Counted from the first letter of the stretch, positions 19,655 to 36,500 are shown. The stretch: 64,000 nt of DNA from Opitutales bacterium (GCA_007133065.1 SLNJ01000019.1:67502-131501), one strand, 5' to 3'. Notes: generated by a model not told the origin, from the letters alone. Made by a program: numbers and translations.

Positions 19655-22129
19655 CTAATCCTCGTCCGACACCGACCGTGGAACCGCGCCGCCGGGGGTG
19701 ACCATGGTCGGGTACTGGTAGAGTGAGCCCGGTTCAACGGTGCGGAACTGCTGACGCATGGGAGAGCCGCCGGGGCTGACGAGATTGGCGGTCACGAAGA
19801 TCAACAGATTGCGTTTCTGGGATGATTCACCCTCGCTGCGAAAGATGCGGCCGAGCAGTGGGATGTCGCCGAGCACCGGCACTTTATCCTGCACGGAGAC
19901 AGCCTGTTCGCGGGTGAGTCCTCCCATGACGACCGTGGCGCCGTCCCAGATGGTGACCTCCGTGCGGATCCGTCGCACTGAGAAAATTGGCTGGAAAAAT
20001 CCACTGGGGACCGTGACGGTCCGGTTTGAGGCGATGGCGACGCTCGGTCCACCGTAGTCGACAAATCCTTCGAACTCGGTGACCTGTGGTTCGAGAAGGA
20101 GGCTGATGGCATTGTCGTCTTCGACCGTGGGGGTAACCTCCATTTCCACGCCTACGTTGCGCACCGTGAAGTCGAGGGGCGTTCCCGAGGTAATGGCGAC
20201 GCCCGCGCTCCCTGCACCCGAGTCGCCGCGGCCGACCTGCGCCTGCATGTCGGTGAAATTTCTGGGATAGCGCATCTCCTGCGCCACGACGATCTGGGCG
20301 GTTTTGCCGGAGAGAACGGTGATTCTCGGGGCGCTCATCAAATCGCTCCCCTGTTTTCTGGAGAGGGCGCGGAACAGCAGTTCGATGTCGGCTCCGCCGA
20401 GGATGCCCATGATCCCTCCGAGGTCCTCCGCGCCGGTTCCGAGCGGGAGGGTGCGGGGGATCGCCGGCGCGCTGATAGGCATCGTTACACGCCCGAGCGG
20501 TCCCACCTCGCCCGGCGGCCCGGTGATCTCCAGGCTGCCTGTGTGTGTCTCCGCGCCGAATGTATCTTCCAGCGAGCGGTGATCGGTCTGAAACCTTCCC
20601 CGGTGGTAGCGCTCGGGCCGGCCGTCAGGCCGTGTAATCGGCAGGCCATCCTCGTCGAGGATCGGTCGCCCTCCGGCGCCGACGATCCATTGGAATCCCA
20701 GTTCCTCCAATTCGCTCTGCTGGACCTCGAGGAACCGCGACTCGATTTCGACCTGTTTAACCTCGGAGTAGCGGCGGAGGATGTTGCGGACCCGTTCCAT
20801 ATTGCGCGCGCTCTGGGTGACGATGATCTGGCCGTCGGCGAGGGCGAGATTGGCTCCCGGGACGGTGTCAAAAGGAACGCCGGCCCGTTGGAGGAAATTC
20901 TTCATGGCGGTTTCCTCTTCGGACGAAGCGATCGACTGTTTCGGTTGTGCCGGCTCTGGAGCGAAGGGATCGGCCGGGGGCGCGATAGAGTCCCCAATTG
21001 CTCCCGCACCGGTCAACCGGATGATCGTGGATCGCGTGATGGGGAAGAAGTCGGTTTCCAGTCGCGTCCGTTCACCGGCACCGCGGCGAACGACGACGAC
21101 GTCGCTTTGCGCTTCGTATTCAAATCCCACGGACTCTACGATGAAATCGAGGACGCGATCCAGAGTCAGCCGGCGGAGCGTGATGGTGACGCCGGGATCG
21201 CTATCATCGGGGGCGATCAGGACCATATTGATTCCCATACCCTCGGGGTCGTATTCCTCTGAGAGTAGCGAGAGTGTGTCGATCACGTGGCTCAGGGATA
21301 CGTCGGCAAAGCTGACGTGCGGAATGGCGATGCGTGTCAGGCGATCGCGAAGATCGTGGTCCTCGGGTGCCGCCGGTTCGGCGGTGGTGCGGTCAAAGAC
21401 CCGTGGGCGCTGCCACGCCCGGGCGACCTCGGTGAGCAGCTCCTGTTTTGTCCGTTCGCGATCGTGGATTCCCTCCTGCATGCGTCGTTTCGCGATCTCG
21501 ATTTGGTGAGCGCGTGCCTCGGCGTTGTGTGGGCTCTCTGCCTCGACCTGGTTGAAGGTTTCCTGAGCCGCATCGAGGTCACCGGCGGCGAGTTGTGCGC
21601 GCCCGATGTCGAGAAGGTCACTGATGCGCTCCTGTTTGGCGTAAAATAGTTCGAGGTAGTCGGGAGGCTTCTGCGGGGTCTGGCCGGCCGCTTCGGGCTC
21701 AGTCGGAGCGGAGCGCGGCGCCGGGGGATCGGGTGCGCTCCGGGTATCGGCGTCGACGGGAACCGGTTTCGCCGGCGATGCATCCGCTGCGAGTGTCGTT
21801 GCCTGTCTTTCGATTTCCGCGACAACTGCTTCGTGAAGGCGTTGGACTCCGGGATCTTCCGGAGCGTTCGCTATGAGGGCTTCGAGCAGGATGCGGGCGC
21901 GTTCGAGATCGCCGTCGCTCCGCGCTCGCAGGGCTCCCGCCATCAGATCGATCTTATCGCGGGCTGCGAGATTCCCCGTCGCGGTCTCCGGCGAACCCGG
22001 CGATGCTGTGGTCGCCAGGATTGTGATCATCAGGAGCACGTACGATCGCGCGGTTGTGGCGATTGGTTTCCGGGGATGCAGTCTTTGCAGCCGGAGATAG
22101 GGCGGGAGGTTTTGCCGGGGGATCATCAT
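19655..22129 (-). CDS. type II/III secretion system secretin family protein (PilQ/GspD-like) with N-terminal TPR-like helices
   Basis: C-terminal secretin signature (VPVLGDIPLLGRIFRSEGESSQKRNLLIFVTANLV) and N0/N1-like repeats. ATG 22129 overlaps the upstream stop (ATGATGA). Confidence 0.85.
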   Translation of the reverse strand: MMIPRQNLPPYLRLQRLHPRKPIATTARSYVLLMITILATTASPGSPETATGNLAARDKIDLMAGALRARSDGDLERARILLEALIANAPEDPGVQRLHEAVVAEIERQATTLAADASPAKPVPVDADTRSAPDPPAPRSAPTEPEAAGQTPQKPPDYLELFYAKQERISDLLDIGRAQLAAGDLDAAQETFNQVEAESPHNAEARAHQIEIAKRRMQEGIHDRERTKQELLTEVARAWQRPRVFDRTTAEPAAPEDHDLRDRLTRIAIPHVSFADVSLSHVIDTLSLLSEEYDPEGMGINMVLIAPDDSDPGVTITLRRLTLDRVLDFIVESVGFEYEAQSDVVVVRRGAGERTRLETDFFPITRSTIIRLTGAGAIGDSIAPPADPFAPEPAQPKQSIASSEEETAMKNFLQRAGVPFDTVPGANLALADGQIIVTQSARNMERVRNILRRYSEVKQVEIESRFLEVQQSELEELGFQWIVGAGGRPILDEDGLPITRPDGRPERYHRGRFQTDHRSLEDTFGAETHTGSLEITGPPGEVGPLGRVTMPISAPAIPRTLPLGTGAEDLGGIMGILGGADIELLFRALSRKQGSDLMSAPRITVLSGKTAQIVVAQEMRYPRNFTDMQAQVGRGDSGAGSAGVAITSGTPLDFTVRNVGVEMEVTPTVEDDNAISLLLEPQVTEFEGFVDYGGPSVAIASNRTVTVPSGFFQPIFSVRRIRTEVTIWDGATVVMGGLTREQAVSVQDKVPVLGDIPLLGRIFRSEGESSQKRNLLIFVTANLVSPGGSPMRQQFRTVEPGSLYQYPTMVTPGGAVPRSVSDED

Positions 22130-22953
22130 GGTGTGGGTGTGGATGGGGTCGCGAGCGAGAGGGTCCGTGACTCCCGTGCGTGCTCTGGGCACTCTCGGAC
22201 GACGGTTACGGCGCCGGCGCGCGCGTCTATTCCTTCGAGGGTGAATCGGGCCGCACCGAGGCGGAGTTGCTCGCCTTCACGGAGCGAATGGATGGCGAGC
22301 GGATCCCCGCGTTCGCGGAAGAGCGCATGCCATTGCGGGGCTCGTCGCGCTTTGCTGTCCAGCGAGATCTCCCGTCCCAGTCGTTCGTCGAGAACGGTCA
22401 GATCGATGGATTCTTCGGCATAGGGTGTGGCATGGGGGCGCGCTTCGTCCGCAACGCGGCGGCGTTCGCATCGGAACGCATGGATGCGGAACCCGTGCTC
22501 GGGGAATGCGTCGCCGACCCGTCCCGCGACGTAACCGCCCGTTTCGCGGTTTCGGATTGTGATGAGCGCGCGCTCCGGCGTGCCGGCGTAGCCTTGGAAC
22601 TGGAGCCGGTACCACGGGCGTTCGATCGCGTGGAGTTGCAGCTCAAAATCCCGAGGCGGAAGCGGGGCGCCGGGTGCGGTGATTCGGAATTCGGCCGCGG
22701 AGGCGTCAAAGTAGATTTGCGGCGGACTGAAGAGTTCAAAGACCCAATCTGCGCCGGCGCTCTGTGGGGCGGGAGGATTCCACTGCGGCGGGTTCTCGGC
22801 CGCACCGTCGAGGGCCGGCGGACGATAGGGCTTCTCGAGGGCGACGCTGGGAATCCGCAGTTCCGGCGTGCCGTGCCACAGGGCGGATCCTGCGCTGCCC
22901 AAACAGAGGATGACGCTCCCTGCCAGGATGGCGATGGCGGAGGCGGGCCTCAT
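22126..22953 (-). CDS. hypothetical membrane-anchored periplasmic protein (PilP-position; Amuc_1099-position)
   Basis: 275 aa. N-terminal hydrophobic anchor (MRPASAIAILAGSVILCLGSAG), beta-rich remainder. ATGA overlaps on both sides. Confidence 0.6.
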   Translation of the reverse strand: MRPASAIAILAGSVILCLGSAGSALWHGTPELRIPSVALEKPYRPPALDGAAENPPQWNPPAPQSAGADWVFELFSPPQIYFDASAAEFRITAPGAPLPPRDFELQLHAIERPWYRLQFQGYAGTPERALITIRNRETGGYVAGRVGDAFPEHGFRIHAFRCERRRVADEARPHATPYAEESIDLTVLDERLGREISLDSKARRAPQWHALFRERGDPLAIHSLREGEQLRLGAARFTLEGIDARAGAVTVVRECPEHARESRTLSLATPSTPTP

Positions 22954-23864
22954 GGTGCGTGGCGCGGTCCGGGATGGGGAATTGCCGGCCCGGGCGGTTC
23001 CACGGGCTCGATTGTGACCTTGAAGATCGAGGGCCGGCTGCGGACGATCGGGATCGGCCCCTGCCGGGCGGATGCGGACTCGGTGGCGAAGAGGGCAAAC
23101 GGATGCTTTGGATCGGTGCCGCCGCGACGGTCCGATTCACGCTCGGGTCTTGCGGACAGGGCGCGGATGGAAAGGGGGAGGCGGGAGTCGACGATTGCCT
23201 GGAGCCATTGCCTGAGACTTTTCGTATGCGCGGCGAACGTGACCTCGATTGCCGTCGGACCCCTGCGGTTCGAGGCAATACGGTCGCCCGGTGATCTCGT
23301 CTGCTTCGGAATCCCCTCTTTTGCGTTGCGGTGCACCCGTATGAGTTCGATCGGTTTTGCTTCGAACAGCCGGAGCATCAGCCAGTCGATCCGGCCCATC
23401 TGGCCGTAGAGTGCGTCGAGCATCGCGGGAGGCGGGACATCACCGGTCTCCAAAATGTCCGCGAACCCGAAGGCGCCGGCGCTCTCGCTCACATCGACGC
23501 CCGCCTGGAACGCCTCGTCGCGCAGCCGATCAACGAGCGTGATCACCTCGAAGTATAGATCCTCCGGAGAGCCGGTGAAGCCTGAATCCGATGCGGCGGC
23601 GATGCCGAGGCTGCGCCTGAGGGACGCGCGTTGTTCGCGAAGTGCGGCACGGTGATATTGCGCCGCATCGAGGCTTTTGGAAGTCAGTGCCGGGGCGTGC
23701 CGCAGATAATGGTTCAGCCTTTCGATTTCGCTGTGGAGCCTGTGTTGCGCGGAGCTCCGTTCATCGATCGAATGCCAGACGAAACGCCACCCGAGCGAGC
23801 CGGCGAGGAGCATCAGTAGCGTCGCCGCACAGAGCACACGCTGCTCGCGCAACAGGGCGATCAC
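22950..23864 (-). CDS. hypothetical bitopic coiled-coil protein (PilO-position; Amuc_1100-like architecture)
   Basis: 304 aa. N-terminal TM (VLCAATLLMLLAGSLGW), a coiled coil, then an alpha/beta region and a Pro-rich tail. ATGA overlaps on both sides. Confidence 0.55.
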   Translation of the reverse strand: MIALLREQRVLCAATLLMLLAGSLGWRFVWHSIDERSSAQHRLHSEIERLNHYLRHAPALTSKSLDAAQYHRAALREQRASLRRSLGIAAASDSGFTGSPEDLYFEVITLVDRLRDEAFQAGVDVSESAGAFGFADILETGDVPPPAMLDALYGQMGRIDWLMLRLFEAKPIELIRVHRNAKEGIPKQTRSPGDRIASNRRGPTAIEVTFAAHTKSLRQWLQAIVDSRLPLSIRALSARPERESDRRGGTDPKHPFALFATESASARQGPIPIVRSRPSIFKVTIEPVEPPGPAIPHPGPRHAP

Positions 23865-25444
23865 AGCGGCACCCCCGCGTCGAGTTCGAGGACGAAAGTG
23901 AACTGCAGGATTCCGTGCCGGTCGGTGTCGAATCGTCGTTCGTGAACGCGGGCGACGGAGGGGGATTGTTCGATAAGCGCGAGGAGACGGTTGACCCGGC
24001 GCTGCGTGTGGATGCTGACCCGTTCGAGCGGATTCTCACGGTCGAGCATACGTCCTTCAACCCTGAGGCGTCGGCCGCTCGGGCTCGTCGCATCCACGGT
24101 TCCTCCGGTGCGGGGCGCGTCGAATTCATCCGGGGTGTCGGTGAACGCGAGACTGTCGAGCCAAACATCCTCGATTGCGCTCATGTGGTCCTGGAGTTCG
24201 ACCAGCAGGCGTATCCAGCTGTGGCGCACCTCCATCAGGTGCTGCAGGCCGGCGATGTCGGACTTCAGGGATTCGATCTCGCCGAGGGTGCGATCGATTT
24301 CAGGTTTGAGTGCAGCAAGTGGTTCCGCCCGGGCTTGCGCCTCGCGCACGCCTCCCTCGAGGTGCGCGAGGATCTGTTGGCCGCGCCAGGCCGGAAGCAC
24401 TGCGGCAAGCGCGCAGAGCGTTGCCGCACCGAGCAGGATCCGCGCTGTTTGGCTCCGGCGCATGCGCCCGGACAATTCCGCCGGCGTCAGATCGATTGCA
24501 ATCGAATCATCGAGCAGCGCGGCTGCCGCATGTCCGATCATCGCACCCGGCAACGGCCCGCATTCGGCCAGGTGGTCGCGGTCGAGATGCGCTCCGCAAT
24601 CGATCCGCCGCAGGGGGTCGAATTGCTCGACCGGGAGCCGGATGCGCGTTTCGAGTGACTCCACGAGTGCGGGACAGACCGTTCCCGGGAGGTCGGTGAT
24701 GATTCGCTCGGGCCGCAGTTCCGCGTGGAGGCGCCGGTTGGCGGCAACGGAGTGCTCGACTTGCCGGGTCAGGCTTTCGACGTACTCATCAGGCGGTTCC
24801 GGCGTTGCATGGCCGCGGCCGAACGGAAGCGTCCGGGTGAGAAATCGGTTGCCTGCGATCCATATCAAATGCGTATTCCGGGTCTCCGCGATGACCAGGA
24901 GCGCCGGCCCCTCCGCGTCCGGATAGTTGAATCGATACGCATTGCAGTAGAGGGGAAGGGTGACCGCGGTTGTTTGGGGGCGAAAGCGTCGTTGCGCGCA
25001 GCGGCTCCAGGCCTGTGATATTGCTGTGCGCTCGACTGCGAATACGACGGTATCGAGATCGATACCGTCGTCCGATACAACGTGGTAGTCCCAGTAGCAT
25101 TCCTCGAGGGAGTGCCTCAAGAGGCGTTCGGCTTCATACCGCACCCCTTCGGTTTGCCGTGACGGATCAACAATGGGCGTGGAAACCCGTGCCGTGTCAA
25201 CCTGGCAATCGGCTACGATGAGCGCGCGATCGGTAGCACCGAAGCAGGGATTCCTCCGCGTGAGCCGGCTCACGATCGCTGCCGGATCCGGCGTTAGCGC
25301 CGCCTGATCGCCGGAGTCGACCGGGAACGAACCGGAGGCCTCGAACGCGTCCAGGCGGATTCTGTCGGCGGTGCACCGATGAACCGCGGCGCCCACAAAG
25401 CCTCCCGCCCAGCAGCCGAGAATCAGCATCCTCCCCCTCGTCAT
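23861..25444 (-). CDS. PilM-like actin-fold protein fused to a PilN-like TM/coiled-coil module
   Basis: 527 aa. The first ~330 aa have a PilM/FtsA-like layout. Then a TM helix (ARILLGAATLCALAAVLPAW), a coiled coil (LGEIESLKSDIAGLQHLM) and a PilN-like C-terminal domain. ATGA overlaps on both sides. Confidence 0.6.
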   Translation of the reverse strand: MTRGRMLILGCWAGGFVGAAVHRCTADRIRLDAFEASGSFPVDSGDQAALTPDPAAIVSRLTRRNPCFGATDRALIVADCQVDTARVSTPIVDPSRQTEGVRYEAERLLRHSLEECYWDYHVVSDDGIDLDTVVFAVERTAISQAWSRCAQRRFRPQTTAVTLPLYCNAYRFNYPDAEGPALLVIAETRNTHLIWIAGNRFLTRTLPFGRGHATPEPPDEYVESLTRQVEHSVAANRRLHAELRPERIITDLPGTVCPALVESLETRIRLPVEQFDPLRRIDCGAHLDRDHLAECGPLPGAMIGHAAAALLDDSIAIDLTPAELSGRMRRSQTARILLGAATLCALAAVLPAWRGQQILAHLEGGVREAQARAEPLAALKPEIDRTLGEIESLKSDIAGLQHLMEVRHSWIRLLVELQDHMSAIEDVWLDSLAFTDTPDEFDAPRTGGTVDATSPSGRRLRVEGRMLDRENPLERVSIHTQRRVNRLLALIEQSPSVARVHERRFDTDRHGILQFTFVLELDAGVPL

Positions 25445-26106
25445 GGCTCGGGCTCGATAGGATTGCGCGGCGATCGATTCTCCCGGGTGGTCGCGCGGCG
25501 ATAGGTCGGCGTGGAGTCAAACTCGCCGTGCCGTACGGTTGAGAAGAAGGGAGTATGGTAGATCGGGAGCAATAGTCCGTCCGTCCCGGCAGCCTTTTGG
25601 TCCACGTGTTTCCGGAATCGCACGAGCCGATCGCGGTCGGTGAGGGCACCGGCTGCGTGTTCCCGTCGAAACGGGAGCGGTCGCCCGCCGACTTCGATCT
25701 CGACCAGAGCAGCGAACGGCGTCGCGGTGAGCCGGTCGCGCTTGACGATTTCAGGGGGCAGAAAAAAGGGAACCGCAATGGTTCGCCGATCCTCGACCGC
25801 GACGAGATCGACCGCGCTCCGGTAGAAGTCCGGCTCACTGTCCGTCGCCCGGCCCGCGCGCGTCGCCAGACTCAATTGCACCCGCACGGCTTCGTTGAAA
25901 CGCGGATGTCGTGCCTCCGGATCCCGGTTCGGTCCCCCGTGCAGTAGCACGCGGATCTGCAGCCAAGGATCCGCCCCGCCCGCCACCGTAGCGTGTCGGA
26001 ACTCTAGTCCGCGCACGACGACAGGATCGCGGTTCGCGTGTGCGCTTTCCCAGGGAATCGCCTGAACCACGGTCAGCAACGCCAGGAGGAGTTTTAACCC
26101 ATTCAT
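25441..26106 (-). CDS. hypothetical secreted protein, first gene of the secretin operon (Amuc_1102-position)
   Basis: 221 aa. Signal peptide MNGLKLLLALLTVVQAIPWESAHA. AT-rich promoter-like gap upstream (26107-26214). Confidence 0.6.
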   Translation of the reverse strand: MNGLKLLLALLTVVQAIPWESAHANRDPVVVRGLEFRHATVAGGADPWLQIRVLLHGGPNRDPEARHPRFNEAVRVQLSLATRAGRATDSEPDFYRSAVDLVAVEDRRTIAVPFFLPPEIVKRDRLTATPFAALVEIEVGGRPLPFRREHAAGALTDRDRLVRFRKHVDQKAAGTDGLLLPIYHTPFFSTVRHGEFDSTPTYRRATTRENRSPRNPIEPEP

Positions 26107-33554: not shown

Positions 33555-36500
33555 TCAGCGTTCGATCCACTCGGACCGGGAGAAGGACCAGAAGTGGCGG
33601 GCGCCGGCGATCGCGGCGGCGAAGTAGAACCAACCCGGATCCCCGAAGCTGAAGAAATATGGGAAGTGTTCGGACGAGGACCAGACCCAGCCGAACGCAG
33701 CGTCCCAGTACCAGAGCTGTTCGGGCGCGGCTTCGGCGAAGTAGATCCAACCGAGTTCCATGTGCCGAACCCACGGATAGTAGGCGAGCTCCACCGTGCC
33801 GAACCACTCCGCGTGGTATCGGTTGTCTTCGGTTCGAGAGAAGTCGTCCCAGGCCGATCCCGGCGGCCACGGGTTGAGCTCGGTCGCCGTGGCGGTGATA
33901 TTGTCAAGGCGCAGCTTCGCGCGGGGCCCCGAGGTTCCGGTCGGCTCGTAGTGGTACCGCCACGCCACCTGAACGTACGGGCGCCCGAGCATTTCTTCCG
34001 GGAGTGGAATTCCGCTGATGTGTTGCGCGTCTCCGGCGATTGCGGAGCGGGTGTACAGAATGGGATCGCCCTCGGGATCGGTGAAATCGAAAAAGGGTCC
34101 GGTGCTTTCGAGGCGGTATTGCAGGCGTAGGTGGTAGACGCGGTTGTTGGGAAGAACGGTGCCGCCGGTCCATTCGAGCTCGGCCGCGCGCACCCCGCGT
34201 GTATCGAGAGCGAGGATTGCGGCCCCGACATACGCGGCGCCGGGAGCATCCTGGGCGTTGGTGGTATTGATAAATCCGAGACCATCGGAGTCGAGCCCCA
34301 CGATCCGGCTCCGGCTTTCAAGGTTGTACGGAAGCGCCCAGGCGCCGGCGAGCGCGGCGGTCGGCCCCGGATCCGGACCGGCGAGCTGAAGCAAGCGCAT
34401 GTGCGGAGGGTACGTTCCGGGATCGGCGTCCGCGGGCCACACGGCGAAGGTGTACGGCGCGTCGGCGAGCCGGTGGGGTGCGGGTTCGAAGGCTGTGGGA
34501 TCCGGGTCGAAGCGCGCGGACAGCACAGGGACCGCCGCCGGGTCGATTGCAATCACCGGGTCGTTGTGATCCGGGAATTCTTTCCACTCGGCAAATCGGA
34601 ATCCGGGGTTCGGCCGGGCCTCGACGGTTACGGGAACCCCGTGAAAATACGATCCGGACCACGGGTATGGTGAGGCCGGATCGGCCAGTCCGAAGGAATC
34701 GCCGTTGATTTCCACGGAGTTGATTCGGAGTGTTCCGCCTTCCGGGTCGCTTACGTCGAACGTGATGTCGGAGCGTCCGGCGAGATCGAAGAAGGCTTCA
34801 ATATGGTCGAAGAGGTGGCCGGGGCGCTGCTCGGCGAAGGCGCGCATCGATATTCGCGAGGCAGCGGGTCCCCTGGTGGTGCTTTCGGGATCGGGGAAAA
34901 TGGACGGCCAGCGCTCGATGTGTTCGTCCACCTCGGGTGCGATCCGTTCCTGGAACTCCTCGAGAAGGGCGGTGGCCCGGCGGGAATGGAATGCGGTGTT
35001 CAACTGGTCGGCGAACCGCGAGATGAAATCGTGGCGAAAGGTGTCGTTGCGCAGGAGGCGGCGGAAGGGCATCGTCGCCCAGGGAGGGTTCGGCCAGTCT
35101 TGATTGGCGTCTGCATAGCCCGATGTCGGACCGTCCGGTTTCGCCGCGAAGCTGAGGGTGTCGAAGTCGGGTTCGTGGAACTGGCGCCATCCGGTATGGA
35201 GGTGCAGGCTGTACCCGAAATCCGTGTCGACGAGCAGCCATCGGAAGCGCCCGTCGAAGGGCGGCCGGATATCGGGGTCGAAGGGCGTGCGCACCCGCCA
35301 GTAATCCATGTTGTTGCTCGGCCAGTCGGTGTTGTTGAGGTAGATGTTGGCGATGTGGAGGTCGATGAAGTTCCCGAGGTCCATCATCGTTCGAATTGTT
35401 TCATACACCTCCGGATCCGCGGGGTCTTCCTCCTCCAGTGTTGCGAGGAGAGCGTCGTAGTGCGCCCGGTTTCCCTCCTTGATGATCCGTTGCACGTTGA
35501 TCTGATGGGCGAGGAGATCGATGTTGTCGGGGTCGATCTCGTGGACGCGTTCGAGGTAGTGCCGGTCGTACCGCTCCCGGATGTTCTGGATCCCCCAGTA
35601 TTCCCCGTTGATAAAGACGATGGACGGTCGATATGCCTGGGTGTCGAAGCGCAGGTGCCCGACCAGCGTCTGATGGAAGGCGTCGCGAAAGTGGGCGTGC
35701 CTGTAGTCCTGTCCACTGTTGCGCAGAATCAGGCGATTGTAGCTCTCGTACGGCTGATCCGGGAAGATGCGGTAGTTAAAGCGCGAGGGACCGTAATCCC
35801 GGCGCGCGTAGAGGCGGAGTGATTTCAGCGGGTATTTGCGGCTGGCGTTTCCGTGGATCCGCGCTCCGGCACCCTGGCTGAGCACGCGCCGGCCGTCGGT
35901 CTCAAACATCTCCAGGTGAATCGGGCGTTCCCAGTTGCGCCCGCGCCTGCGCCAGTTCGGGGTGCTTCCGTCGCCGTGCACGTAGATGCCGGAATCGCTG
36001 GAAAAGAAGTGCGCCGCATCCGTGGAAATCGATAGGACCGGAAAGGAGTAGCGATCGTGGCGTTCCGGGCCGATCAGGTAGGTGCCTGTGGCGGTTGCGC
36101 TCGGCAGTGCCTCCTCGCCGAACGCACGCACGCGAACAACAGTGGCTTTCTGAACGGGGTCTTCGGGAGTACGCCAGTCCCCGTTCGGCGCGATCGTGCG
36201 AATCGGGGTCAGTTCATCCGGCTCGAAACTGCGATCGTAGACCACGATGGGCGACTCCGGGTCGAACCGCGGCGAGGTCTCGGTTGGTTTTGACCCGTCC
36301 AGGGTATATCGCAGGGTAACCGCGCTGTCCGTGGTATGAAGGTGCAGTTCGATCGGCTGACCGTAGTACCCCGGCGCGTGCGAGAAGAGCGGGGCGCTGA
36401 GCAGTCGCTCGTACCCGGTGTCGGAGTTGGGTTGCAGGGGCGTGGGTTCGTCGAAGTACCGCCAGGAGTCCGTACCGTCCGGTGCCCTGCCAAAACTGAT

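Follow-up and report, generated by a model that had tools for sequence, protein, structure and literature searches.

A five-gene secretin operon of an Opitutales bacterium is a divergent homologue of the Akkermansia muciniphila Amuc_1102-1098 locus

We analysed a 64,000-nucleotide stretch of DNA (the window) on C12, a 150-kb contig of the genome of an Opitutales bacterium (G000), and found that five consecutive minus-strand genes between positions 19655 and 26106, named g1 to g5 in the order of transcription, are, with near certainty as judged by sequence and profile comparison, the Opitutales orthologue of the Amuc_1102-1101-1100-1099-1098 locus of Akkermansia muciniphila, which comprises MUL2 and its secretin. 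The operon is real and well organised, and it is a divergent member of a locus that is already known and named. The original prediction had likened it to the Akkermansia cluster by gene position; the likeness goes beyond position and amounts to homology for all five proteins, because NCBIfam matches (g2, g3, and g5), profile-profile alignments with controls (g1 to g4), iterated profile searches, a profile match of g3 to a solved structure, and the predicted fold of g1 agree on it. MUL2 consists of Amuc_1099 to Amuc_1102 and Amuc_1098 is the secretin (the locus is discussed in PMC5332112, PMC10688800, and PMC13174399); the families of the locus are held in NCBIfam as NF042424, NF045709, NF038287, NF042425, and NF042912, and two components have been solved, Amuc_1100 (PDB 6KNY/6LAD) and Amuc_1102 (PDB 7DSZ). 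The proteins of the Akkermansia cluster are abundant in the envelope (PMC5332112), and PMC13174399 (ISME J 2026) characterises MUL2 as a type IV-like pilus system and reports its synteny throughout Akkermansiaceae. As to function, we favour, at a probability of about 0.6, a machine of the type-IV-filament class in which the module supplies the scaffold across the envelope and the pore in the outer membrane, driven and filled by a motor and pilins encoded elsewhere.

For comparison of the module, 20 loci were drawn from across Verrucomicrobiota, and about 18 of them have the five genes in the same order. The five proteins of one locus (L051) exceed the NCBIfam cut-offs for the Amuc_1102, 1101, 1100, 1099, and 1098 families, and this locus therefore serves as the Akkermansia-type reference; the order and strand of g1 to g5 are identical to it. 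By the same NCBI thresholds the studied proteins are distant relatives rather than equivalogs, since the scores of g2, g3, and g5 fall short of the equivalog cut-offs and neither g1 nor g4 has a direct match. Single-sequence phmmer searches of g1, g2, and g3 against the PDB gave no useful match either, and profiles were required. When the Opitutales clade, with the studied proteins included, was aligned by hhalign with the other clade for g1 to g4, the matched pairs reached probabilities of 93 to 100%, whereas six mismatched control pairs did not exceed 3.4%. In addition, hidden Markov models (HMMs) iterated from the studied g3 and g4 each retrieved the 20 positional orthologues without exception, among them L051, and no other protein. 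The studied operon and the Amuc_1098-1102 cluster thus have five homologous genes in one order on one strand, with a PilM-PilN fusion, a TPR-bearing secretin, and a Sec-exported first protein, and neither locus contains motor or pilin genes. They differ in that identities are 14 to 27% and scores lie far below the equivalog cut-offs, in that the studied PilM-like domain has lost its ATP-binding motifs together with about 45 residues and g4 has no TSP3-like calcium-binding insert, and in the host, a salt- or soda-lake Opitutales bacterium for which, given that habitat, mucin is not the substrate.

The first gene, g1 (25441 to 26106), encodes an exported 221-residue protein, a predicted beta-sandwich with a C-terminal helix and a divergent homologue of Amuc_1102 (MUL2A). 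Its signal peptide is of the Sec type (…AIPWESAHA/N), and it lies upstream of the PilM-like gene, the same position as in the phylum loci inspected. No direct match to g1 was found in Pfam or NCBIfam. The AlphaFold model of g1 has a predicted local distance difference test (pLDDT) score of 77.8 and a predicted template modelling score of 0.75, and when it was searched with Foldseek against the PDB, the top three matches were chains of 7DSZ (E 2.4e-5 to 3.3e-5, probability 1.00), with template modelling scores of 0.51 to 0.62; the next-best PDB match was about 100 times weaker. The hhalign comparison with the Amuc_1102-type clade points to the same relationship (93.4% probability, E 2.4e-7, 133 columns).

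The second gene, g2 (23861 to 25444, 527 residues), is a homologue of Amuc_1101 (MUL2B), in which a PilM-like actin-fold cytoplasmic domain is followed by a single transmembrane segment (residues 334 to 352 by hydropathy, the method used for all such segments here) and a periplasmic half resembling PilN or the C-terminal part of GspL. The protein matches Amuc_1101_fam at E 1e-38 and 134 bits (equivalog cut-off, 650), and in hhalign it pairs with the Akkermansia-type clade at 100% probability (E 4e-78). The PilM-likeness of g2 holds at the family level, where sequence profiles place 19 of the 21 members in Pfam PilM_2 (PF11104; best E 2.5e-43), and the nucleotide-binding motifs are intact in most of the homologues of the phylum. 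In the C-terminal half, a few family members give weak PilN, T2SSL, GspL_C, or T2SSM matches (PilN in 1 of 21, at 0.006), and the studied g2 has no match to PilN (PF05137).

The third gene, g3 (22950 to 23864, 304 residues), encodes a bitopic inner-membrane protein homologous to Amuc_1100, with one transmembrane segment (residues 10 to 28), a helical stalk, an alpha/beta domain, and a proline-rich tail; it occupies the position of PilO or GspM. It matches Amuc_1100_fam at E 1.6e-6 and 28 bits (cut-off 180), as do 19 of the 20 g3-family members, and the hhalign comparison extends over 295 columns (99.8% probability, E 5.5e-29). A profile built from Opitutales sequences only returned Amuc_1100 (6KNY/6LAD) as its top match in the PDB (E 1.4e-4). 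A weak NCBIfam match to GspM (E 0.0021) is also present, and weak GspM signal occurs in 4 of the 20 family members. In a genome of the Opitutales order (G225, L045:6564-8153), the g3 and g4 homologues form a single open reading frame (ORF) of 529 residues with no g1 homologue upstream; the single frame reflects either a gene fusion or a frameshift introduced by sequencing.

The product of g4 (22126 to 22953, 275 residues), a homologue of Amuc_1099 in the PilP or GspC position, is likewise bitopic, with a transmembrane segment at about residues 7 to 25, a proline-rich linker, and a confidently predicted all-beta periplasmic part (AlphaFold pLDDT 85.7); no lipobox cysteine is found in the sequence at the end of the N-terminal hydrophobic segment. 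Although the studied protein has no direct match in NCBIfam or Pfam, 12 of the 20 g4-family members match Amuc_1099_fam, and hhalign aligned the two clades at 97.3% probability (E 2.1e-11). The family is divided by an insert: outside Opitutales (L051 to L061) the Amuc_1099-family proteins contain an inserted DxDxDGF…E calcium-binding motif (Pfam TSP3_bac, EF-hand), which in several of these lineages is accompanied by CxxC…CPxC zinc-ribbon-like cysteine pairs, whereas in the alignment the whole calcium-binding insert is missing from the Opitutales proteins, g4 included.

The last gene, g5 (19655 to 22129, or from the alternative GTG at 22192 in its longest version), encodes an 824-residue outer-membrane secretin of the Amuc_1098 family with a Sec-type N terminus, as read from the sequence, and an N-terminal TPR region. 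Its Secretin domain (PF00263, residues 588 to 784, E 1.2e-34) and its TPR repeats (residues 172 to 212) are the only features that Pfam recognises in the five proteins of the operon. The match to Amuc_1098_fam (366 bits, E 2.9e-109; cut-off 750) is far stronger than those to GspD (133 bits; cut-off 351) and to the PilQ family TIGR02515 (117 bits; cut-off 284). Among the best 80 of the 571 relatives in the secretin alignment, which are mostly labelled Opitutales, Puniceicoccaceae, or Opitutaceae and for the rest have broader or stray labels, the closest are Puniceicoccaceae and Opitutales metagenome-assembled genomes (MAGs) at 57% identity. In three loci outside Opitutales (L052:9210-15068, L057:106-5473, and L061:8942-13870), two tandem secretin genes instead of one follow the module.

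The original prediction had also read the operon as a mirror of pilMNOPQ. That comparison stands for PilM, at the family level, and for the secretin; for PilN and for PilO or GspM the signal is weak, and a likeness of g4 to PilP was looked for by sequence and by fold and not found. The labels PilO and PilP, as applied to g3 and g4, therefore refer to position and topology only. Compared with the PilM-PilN-PilO-PilP-PilQ systems of Pseudomonas, Myxococcus, and Thermus, the module has the same gene order, the same membrane topology (a cytoplasmic actin-like protein, two bitopic proteins, a periplasmic beta-protein, and a secretin), a g2 family that matches PilM_2, a secretin C-terminal domain in g5, and an operon separate from pilB, pilC, pilD, and the pilins. 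It differs from them in the fusion of PilM with PilN, in the extra first gene g1, in the lack of significant PilO or PilP similarity in g3 and g4, in a secretin that by Pfam has TPR repeats and not AMIN domains, and in its coexistence with a separate, unfused pilMNOPQ-like operon in the studied genome.

The type II secretion system (T2SS) offers a second comparison, GspL-GspM-GspC-GspD, with which the module shares the fused architecture of GspL in g2, the secretin pore, the weak GspM match of g3, and a non-significant match of the g4-family profile to the GspC HR domain in the PDB (E 0.073). The module could be a second T2SS-like exporter, in which a short pseudopilus would push specific large exoproteins or adhesins through g5 and g1 would be an exported cofactor. 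The GspL-type arrangement of actin-like domain, transmembrane helix, and periplasmic domain in one chain and the scattered T2SSL, GspL_C, T2SSM, and GspM matches speak for such an exporter, yet the g2 family fits PilM_2 far better than T2SSL, g5 is much closer to Amuc_1098_fam than to GspD, and no gspE, gspF, or gspG to gspK gene adjoins the module. There is also no cargo candidate at the locus, whose neighbours are a convergent metH beyond the secretin end and a cardiolipin synthase-like gene upstream of the operon, and the genome already has a complete T2SS with its own secretin on another contig (C75). The g5 secretin is thus not the GspD of that T2SS, and we regard a second exporter as very unlikely.

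In the type-IV-filament-class machine that we favour, g2 would join PilM-like cytoplasmic and PilN-like periplasmic domains in one polypeptide, as in the architecture of GspL, and g3, from the PilO or GspM position, would pair with it in the inner membrane. The g4 protein, in the place of PilP or GspC, would connect with the N-terminal domains of the secretin g5, whose fused TPR region may stand in for a separate pilotin, and g1 may be an exported accessory or fibre-associated subunit. An ATPase, a platform protein, a prepilin peptidase, and prepilin-type subunits from elsewhere in the genome would drive and fill the machine.

Such components are indeed encoded by the organism. Searches for T2SSE, T2SSF, and Peptidase_A24 matches and for ORFs with a prepilin motif found none on the 150-kb contig C12, so the earlier remark that no ATPase, platform, peptidase, or pilin gene lies within 64 kb holds and extends to the whole contig; the further claim that the machine lacks these parts does not survive the search of the rest of the genome, in which PilB, PilC, PilD, PilT, and pilins are present on other contigs. 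Separation of pilMNOPQ operons from motor genes is normal for classical systems, as in Pseudomonas aeruginosa. The other contigs encode eight T2SSE-family ATPases (PilB-, PilT-, or GspE-type), including candidate partners on C15, C76, C112, and C133, three platform proteins (on C67, C115, and C75), and one prepilin peptidase (C126), and a prepilin leader is found in at least 15 of their ORFs. Three of the ATPases, a PilB-like protein (566 residues), a PilT (373 residues), and a PilT-like protein (419 residues), are clustered on C133 (40776 to 44999), where no platform, pilin, or scaffold gene adjoins them. A further PilT-like gene is found on C76, as is a 591-residue ATPase encoded between two sigma-54-type response-regulator-like genes.

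In a narrower form of the favoured reading, the module is the only genuine alignment complex and pore of a type IVa pilus that the organism has and works with the PilB-PilT-PilT set of C133, a PilC platform (C67 or C115), and major pilin candidates. The C133 cluster has no scaffold genes of its own, no Pfam PilM_2 or PilO match was found elsewhere in the assembly, and PilT and the module are lost together. Against it stands a second candidate partner, at least as good, on C64 (349 to 12258), a contig with one end inside a PilO-like gene, after which come genes for a PilP-like protein, a 587-residue secretin, and a 3035-residue exported protein; it thus holds the 3' end of a second operon. Its orthologues in complete relatives (L152 to L154) are unfused five-gene pilMNOPQ-like operons encoding proteins of 343, 217, 194, 195, and 614 residues, in which Pfam recognises the secretin only and gives no match for the first four proteins. 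Sampled Opitutales genomes, moreover, contain three or four secretins each, and an exclusive type IVa role for the module is therefore unlikely in our estimate. The idea that the module is the only PilMNOP-like set of the genome was withdrawn once the C64 end and its complete orthologues had been read. The C terminus of the 3035-residue C64 protein is an aromatic-rich repeat (…YHYELGWLYLWAE…FELGWLWTSDNYYYHQSLLYQY…), which resembles the Trp/Tyr/Phe tail of a CotH protein encoded in the window (33558 to 33818).

Two lines of evidence connect the module more generally with a motor. The first is common loss. A PilT-family gene scores above the cut-off in 290 of 301 genomes, and 9 of the 11 genomes without one lack a homologue of g2 too (Fisher p = 3e-6, without correction for phylogeny); the f11 genomes lack secretin, platform, and module alike. 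The second is adjacency in two loci, L107:10166-16530 from an Opitutia UBA7374 MAG and L097:4832-9790 from a Coraliomargaritaceae MAG, in which genes for a prepilin, an ATPase of the GspE/PilB type, a platform, and a large prepilin-like protein lie downstream of the Amuc-type secretin gene on its strand. This adjacency is a lead, not proof. The L107 locus also encodes a 451-residue protein with a GspL-like layout. Because the motor parts are present in the genome, because of the co-loss and the L107/L097 adjacency, and in view of the PilM_2 membership of the g2 family and the secretin, we prefer a motor-driven machine of the type IV filament class, with more than one candidate motor in the genome.

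A number of observations weigh against this preference. The g2 protein of the studied genome has itself no PilM_2 match, either when Pfam was run on the protein or at its site in a whole-genome search, because its nucleotide-binding motifs are degenerate in the alignment (LILGCW for LDxGA, VIAETRNT for VDIGARST, and DLPGT for GGxS) and about 45 residues are deleted from the PilM-like half, a deletion common to the closest relatives (L042 to L044) and found also in L045 and L055. Given this loss of the nucleotide-binding motifs, the PilM-like domain of the lineage is probably a structural adaptor only. No significant Pfam match to PilO (PF04350) or T2SSM was obtained for g3 and the 20 members of its family, and none of the 20 g4-family members gives a PilP (PF04351) or GspC signal by Pfam or NCBIfam. 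A PilP-like fold for g4 was considered and dropped, since the model is confident and yet Foldseek found no PDB match for it at E ≤ 0.01. To judge from its leader, which is a Sec signal peptide and not of the prepilin type (the G/FTLxE motif is not present), g1 is no classical pilin. Motor and pilin genes do not adjoin the module in 98 of 100 Opitutales loci and 20 of 20 phylum loci, and in the two exceptions, which apparently represent one lineage, a gap of 454 bp separates the secretin from the motor set. The real partner of PilB and PilT could be the unfused C64-type operon or the T2SS-like operon of C75, which is complete with its own secretin. Akkermansia-type genomes have two secretins and one platform gene, a finding that led us to reject one platform, and hence one motor, per secretin as a general rule, although secretins and platform genes number three each in the studied genome and three or four each in the sampled Opitutales genomes. 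Finally, among sequencing runs that contain window positions 22000 to 25500, RNA runs were looked for and DNA metagenomes only were found.

Several of these points would fit a motor-independent envelope conduit, made up of a self-contained secretin gate and an inner-membrane ring and dispensing with ATPase, platform, and pilins, for the uptake or display of large glycans or other polymers. The module has no motor or pilin neighbours in 118 of 120 loci, this lineage has lost the PilM-like nucleotide-binding motifs, two other secretin systems in the genome could use the available motors, and the Akkermansia-type genomes have fewer platforms than secretins. Mucin uptake by MUL2 has been proposed in Akkermansia, and PMC12418764, citing Davey 2023, reports that MUL genes are needed for intracellular accumulation of mucin products. 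The conduit does not account well for the pattern of co-loss, in which lineages without PilT-family, platform, and secretin genes have lost the module as well, and the pilin-ATPase-platform adjacency of L107 and L097 argues for a motor. To our knowledge, PilM- and GspL-type cytoplasmic domains act only as adaptors to an ATPase or platform, and no secretin is known to work in the absence of a cognate inner-membrane motor or export apparatus, except those of filamentous phages, which even so use phage ATPase-like partners. A conduit of this kind is thus rather unlikely, and the motor-driven scaffold and pore remains the reading that we prefer.

The five minus-strand ORFs have the coordinates and lengths originally predicted for them. 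A 4-bp overlap of start and stop codons occurs at all four junctions; the sequence is ATGA at 25444, 22953, and 22129, and GTGA at 23864, where the GTG start codon of g3 overlaps the stop codon of g2, so that the original description of every junction as an ATGA overlap is right about the overlaps and, as to ATGA, right for three of the four. In crude genome-wide gene calls, a 4-bp overlap is possible in 224 of 1493 same-strand neighbour pairs (15%), and g1 to g5 form the one run of four consecutive overlaps in the genome. The run is striking, yet statistically unsurprising, since about 0.75 such runs are predicted under independence. Among 80 orthologous Opitutales loci, the overlaps recur at only 4/44, 9/67, 21/70, and 11/71 of the four junctions (9 to 30%), and the overlap of all junctions is therefore particular to the studied genome and no conserved trait of the operon. 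In this organism the overlaps point to co-translation of the five products, while its relatives do without; fixed stoichiometry by translational coupling, as had been proposed, is not a property that the operon has conserved. When the operon was scanned for promoters and terminators, nothing exceeded shuffled expectation.

The module is single-copy in its own genome, of which the assembly lacks roughly 6%. In Verrucomicrobiota, 249 of the 301 genomes sampled (about 83%) and 130 of 149 genera have a homologue of g2. The count of genomes is an underestimate, because two genomes of the same family that were scored negative carry a third secretin with an Amuc-type-like score. According to PMC13174399, the MUL2 locus is "often conserved" in Verrucomicrobiales and less often in Chthoniobacterales, and Methylacidiphilales lack it; that survey does not mention Opitutales. 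The exact sequence of window positions 22000 to 25500 was found in salt-lake (2012) and soda-lake (2019) metagenome runs, which identifies the organism as a haloalkaline-lake Opitutales bacterium.

The T2SS, the unfused pilMNOPQ-like system, and the Amuc-type module coexist in sampled Opitutales genomes. It is conceivable, though we hold it as a speculative view on the doubtful side, that the module is a third, phylum-wide type-IV-filament-like machine, distinct from the other two, which borrows a motor or, where the PilM-like site has been lost, serves as a motor-independent gated conduit for polymers. If this were true, Amuc_1100, which is commonly described as a protein of the outer membrane or the pilus surface, would be an inner-membrane scaffold subunit in the PilO or GspM position of an ancient housekeeping apparatus with no special link to mucin. 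The new elements of the present analysis are the homology of g1 and g4, which no library recognises, the disappearance of the nucleotide-binding site from the PilM-like domain of this lineage, the finding that one genome harbours the module, a T2SS, and an unfused pilMNOPQ-like operon, and the rare adjacency of the module to pilin, ATPase, and platform genes. Amuc_1100 and Amuc_1098, as parts of this machine, are heavily studied as host-active proteins of a candidate probiotic. The three coexisting secretin systems and the rare loci that combine the module with pilin, ATPase, and platform genes are handles for finding the motor, and work on free-living relatives, which may be more tractable, could reveal the role of the machine. 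Its orthologue in a salt- or soda-lake Opitutales bacterium and its presence in about 83% of the sampled genomes of the phylum argue that it is a general envelope apparatus and not an adaptation to mucin or to a host.

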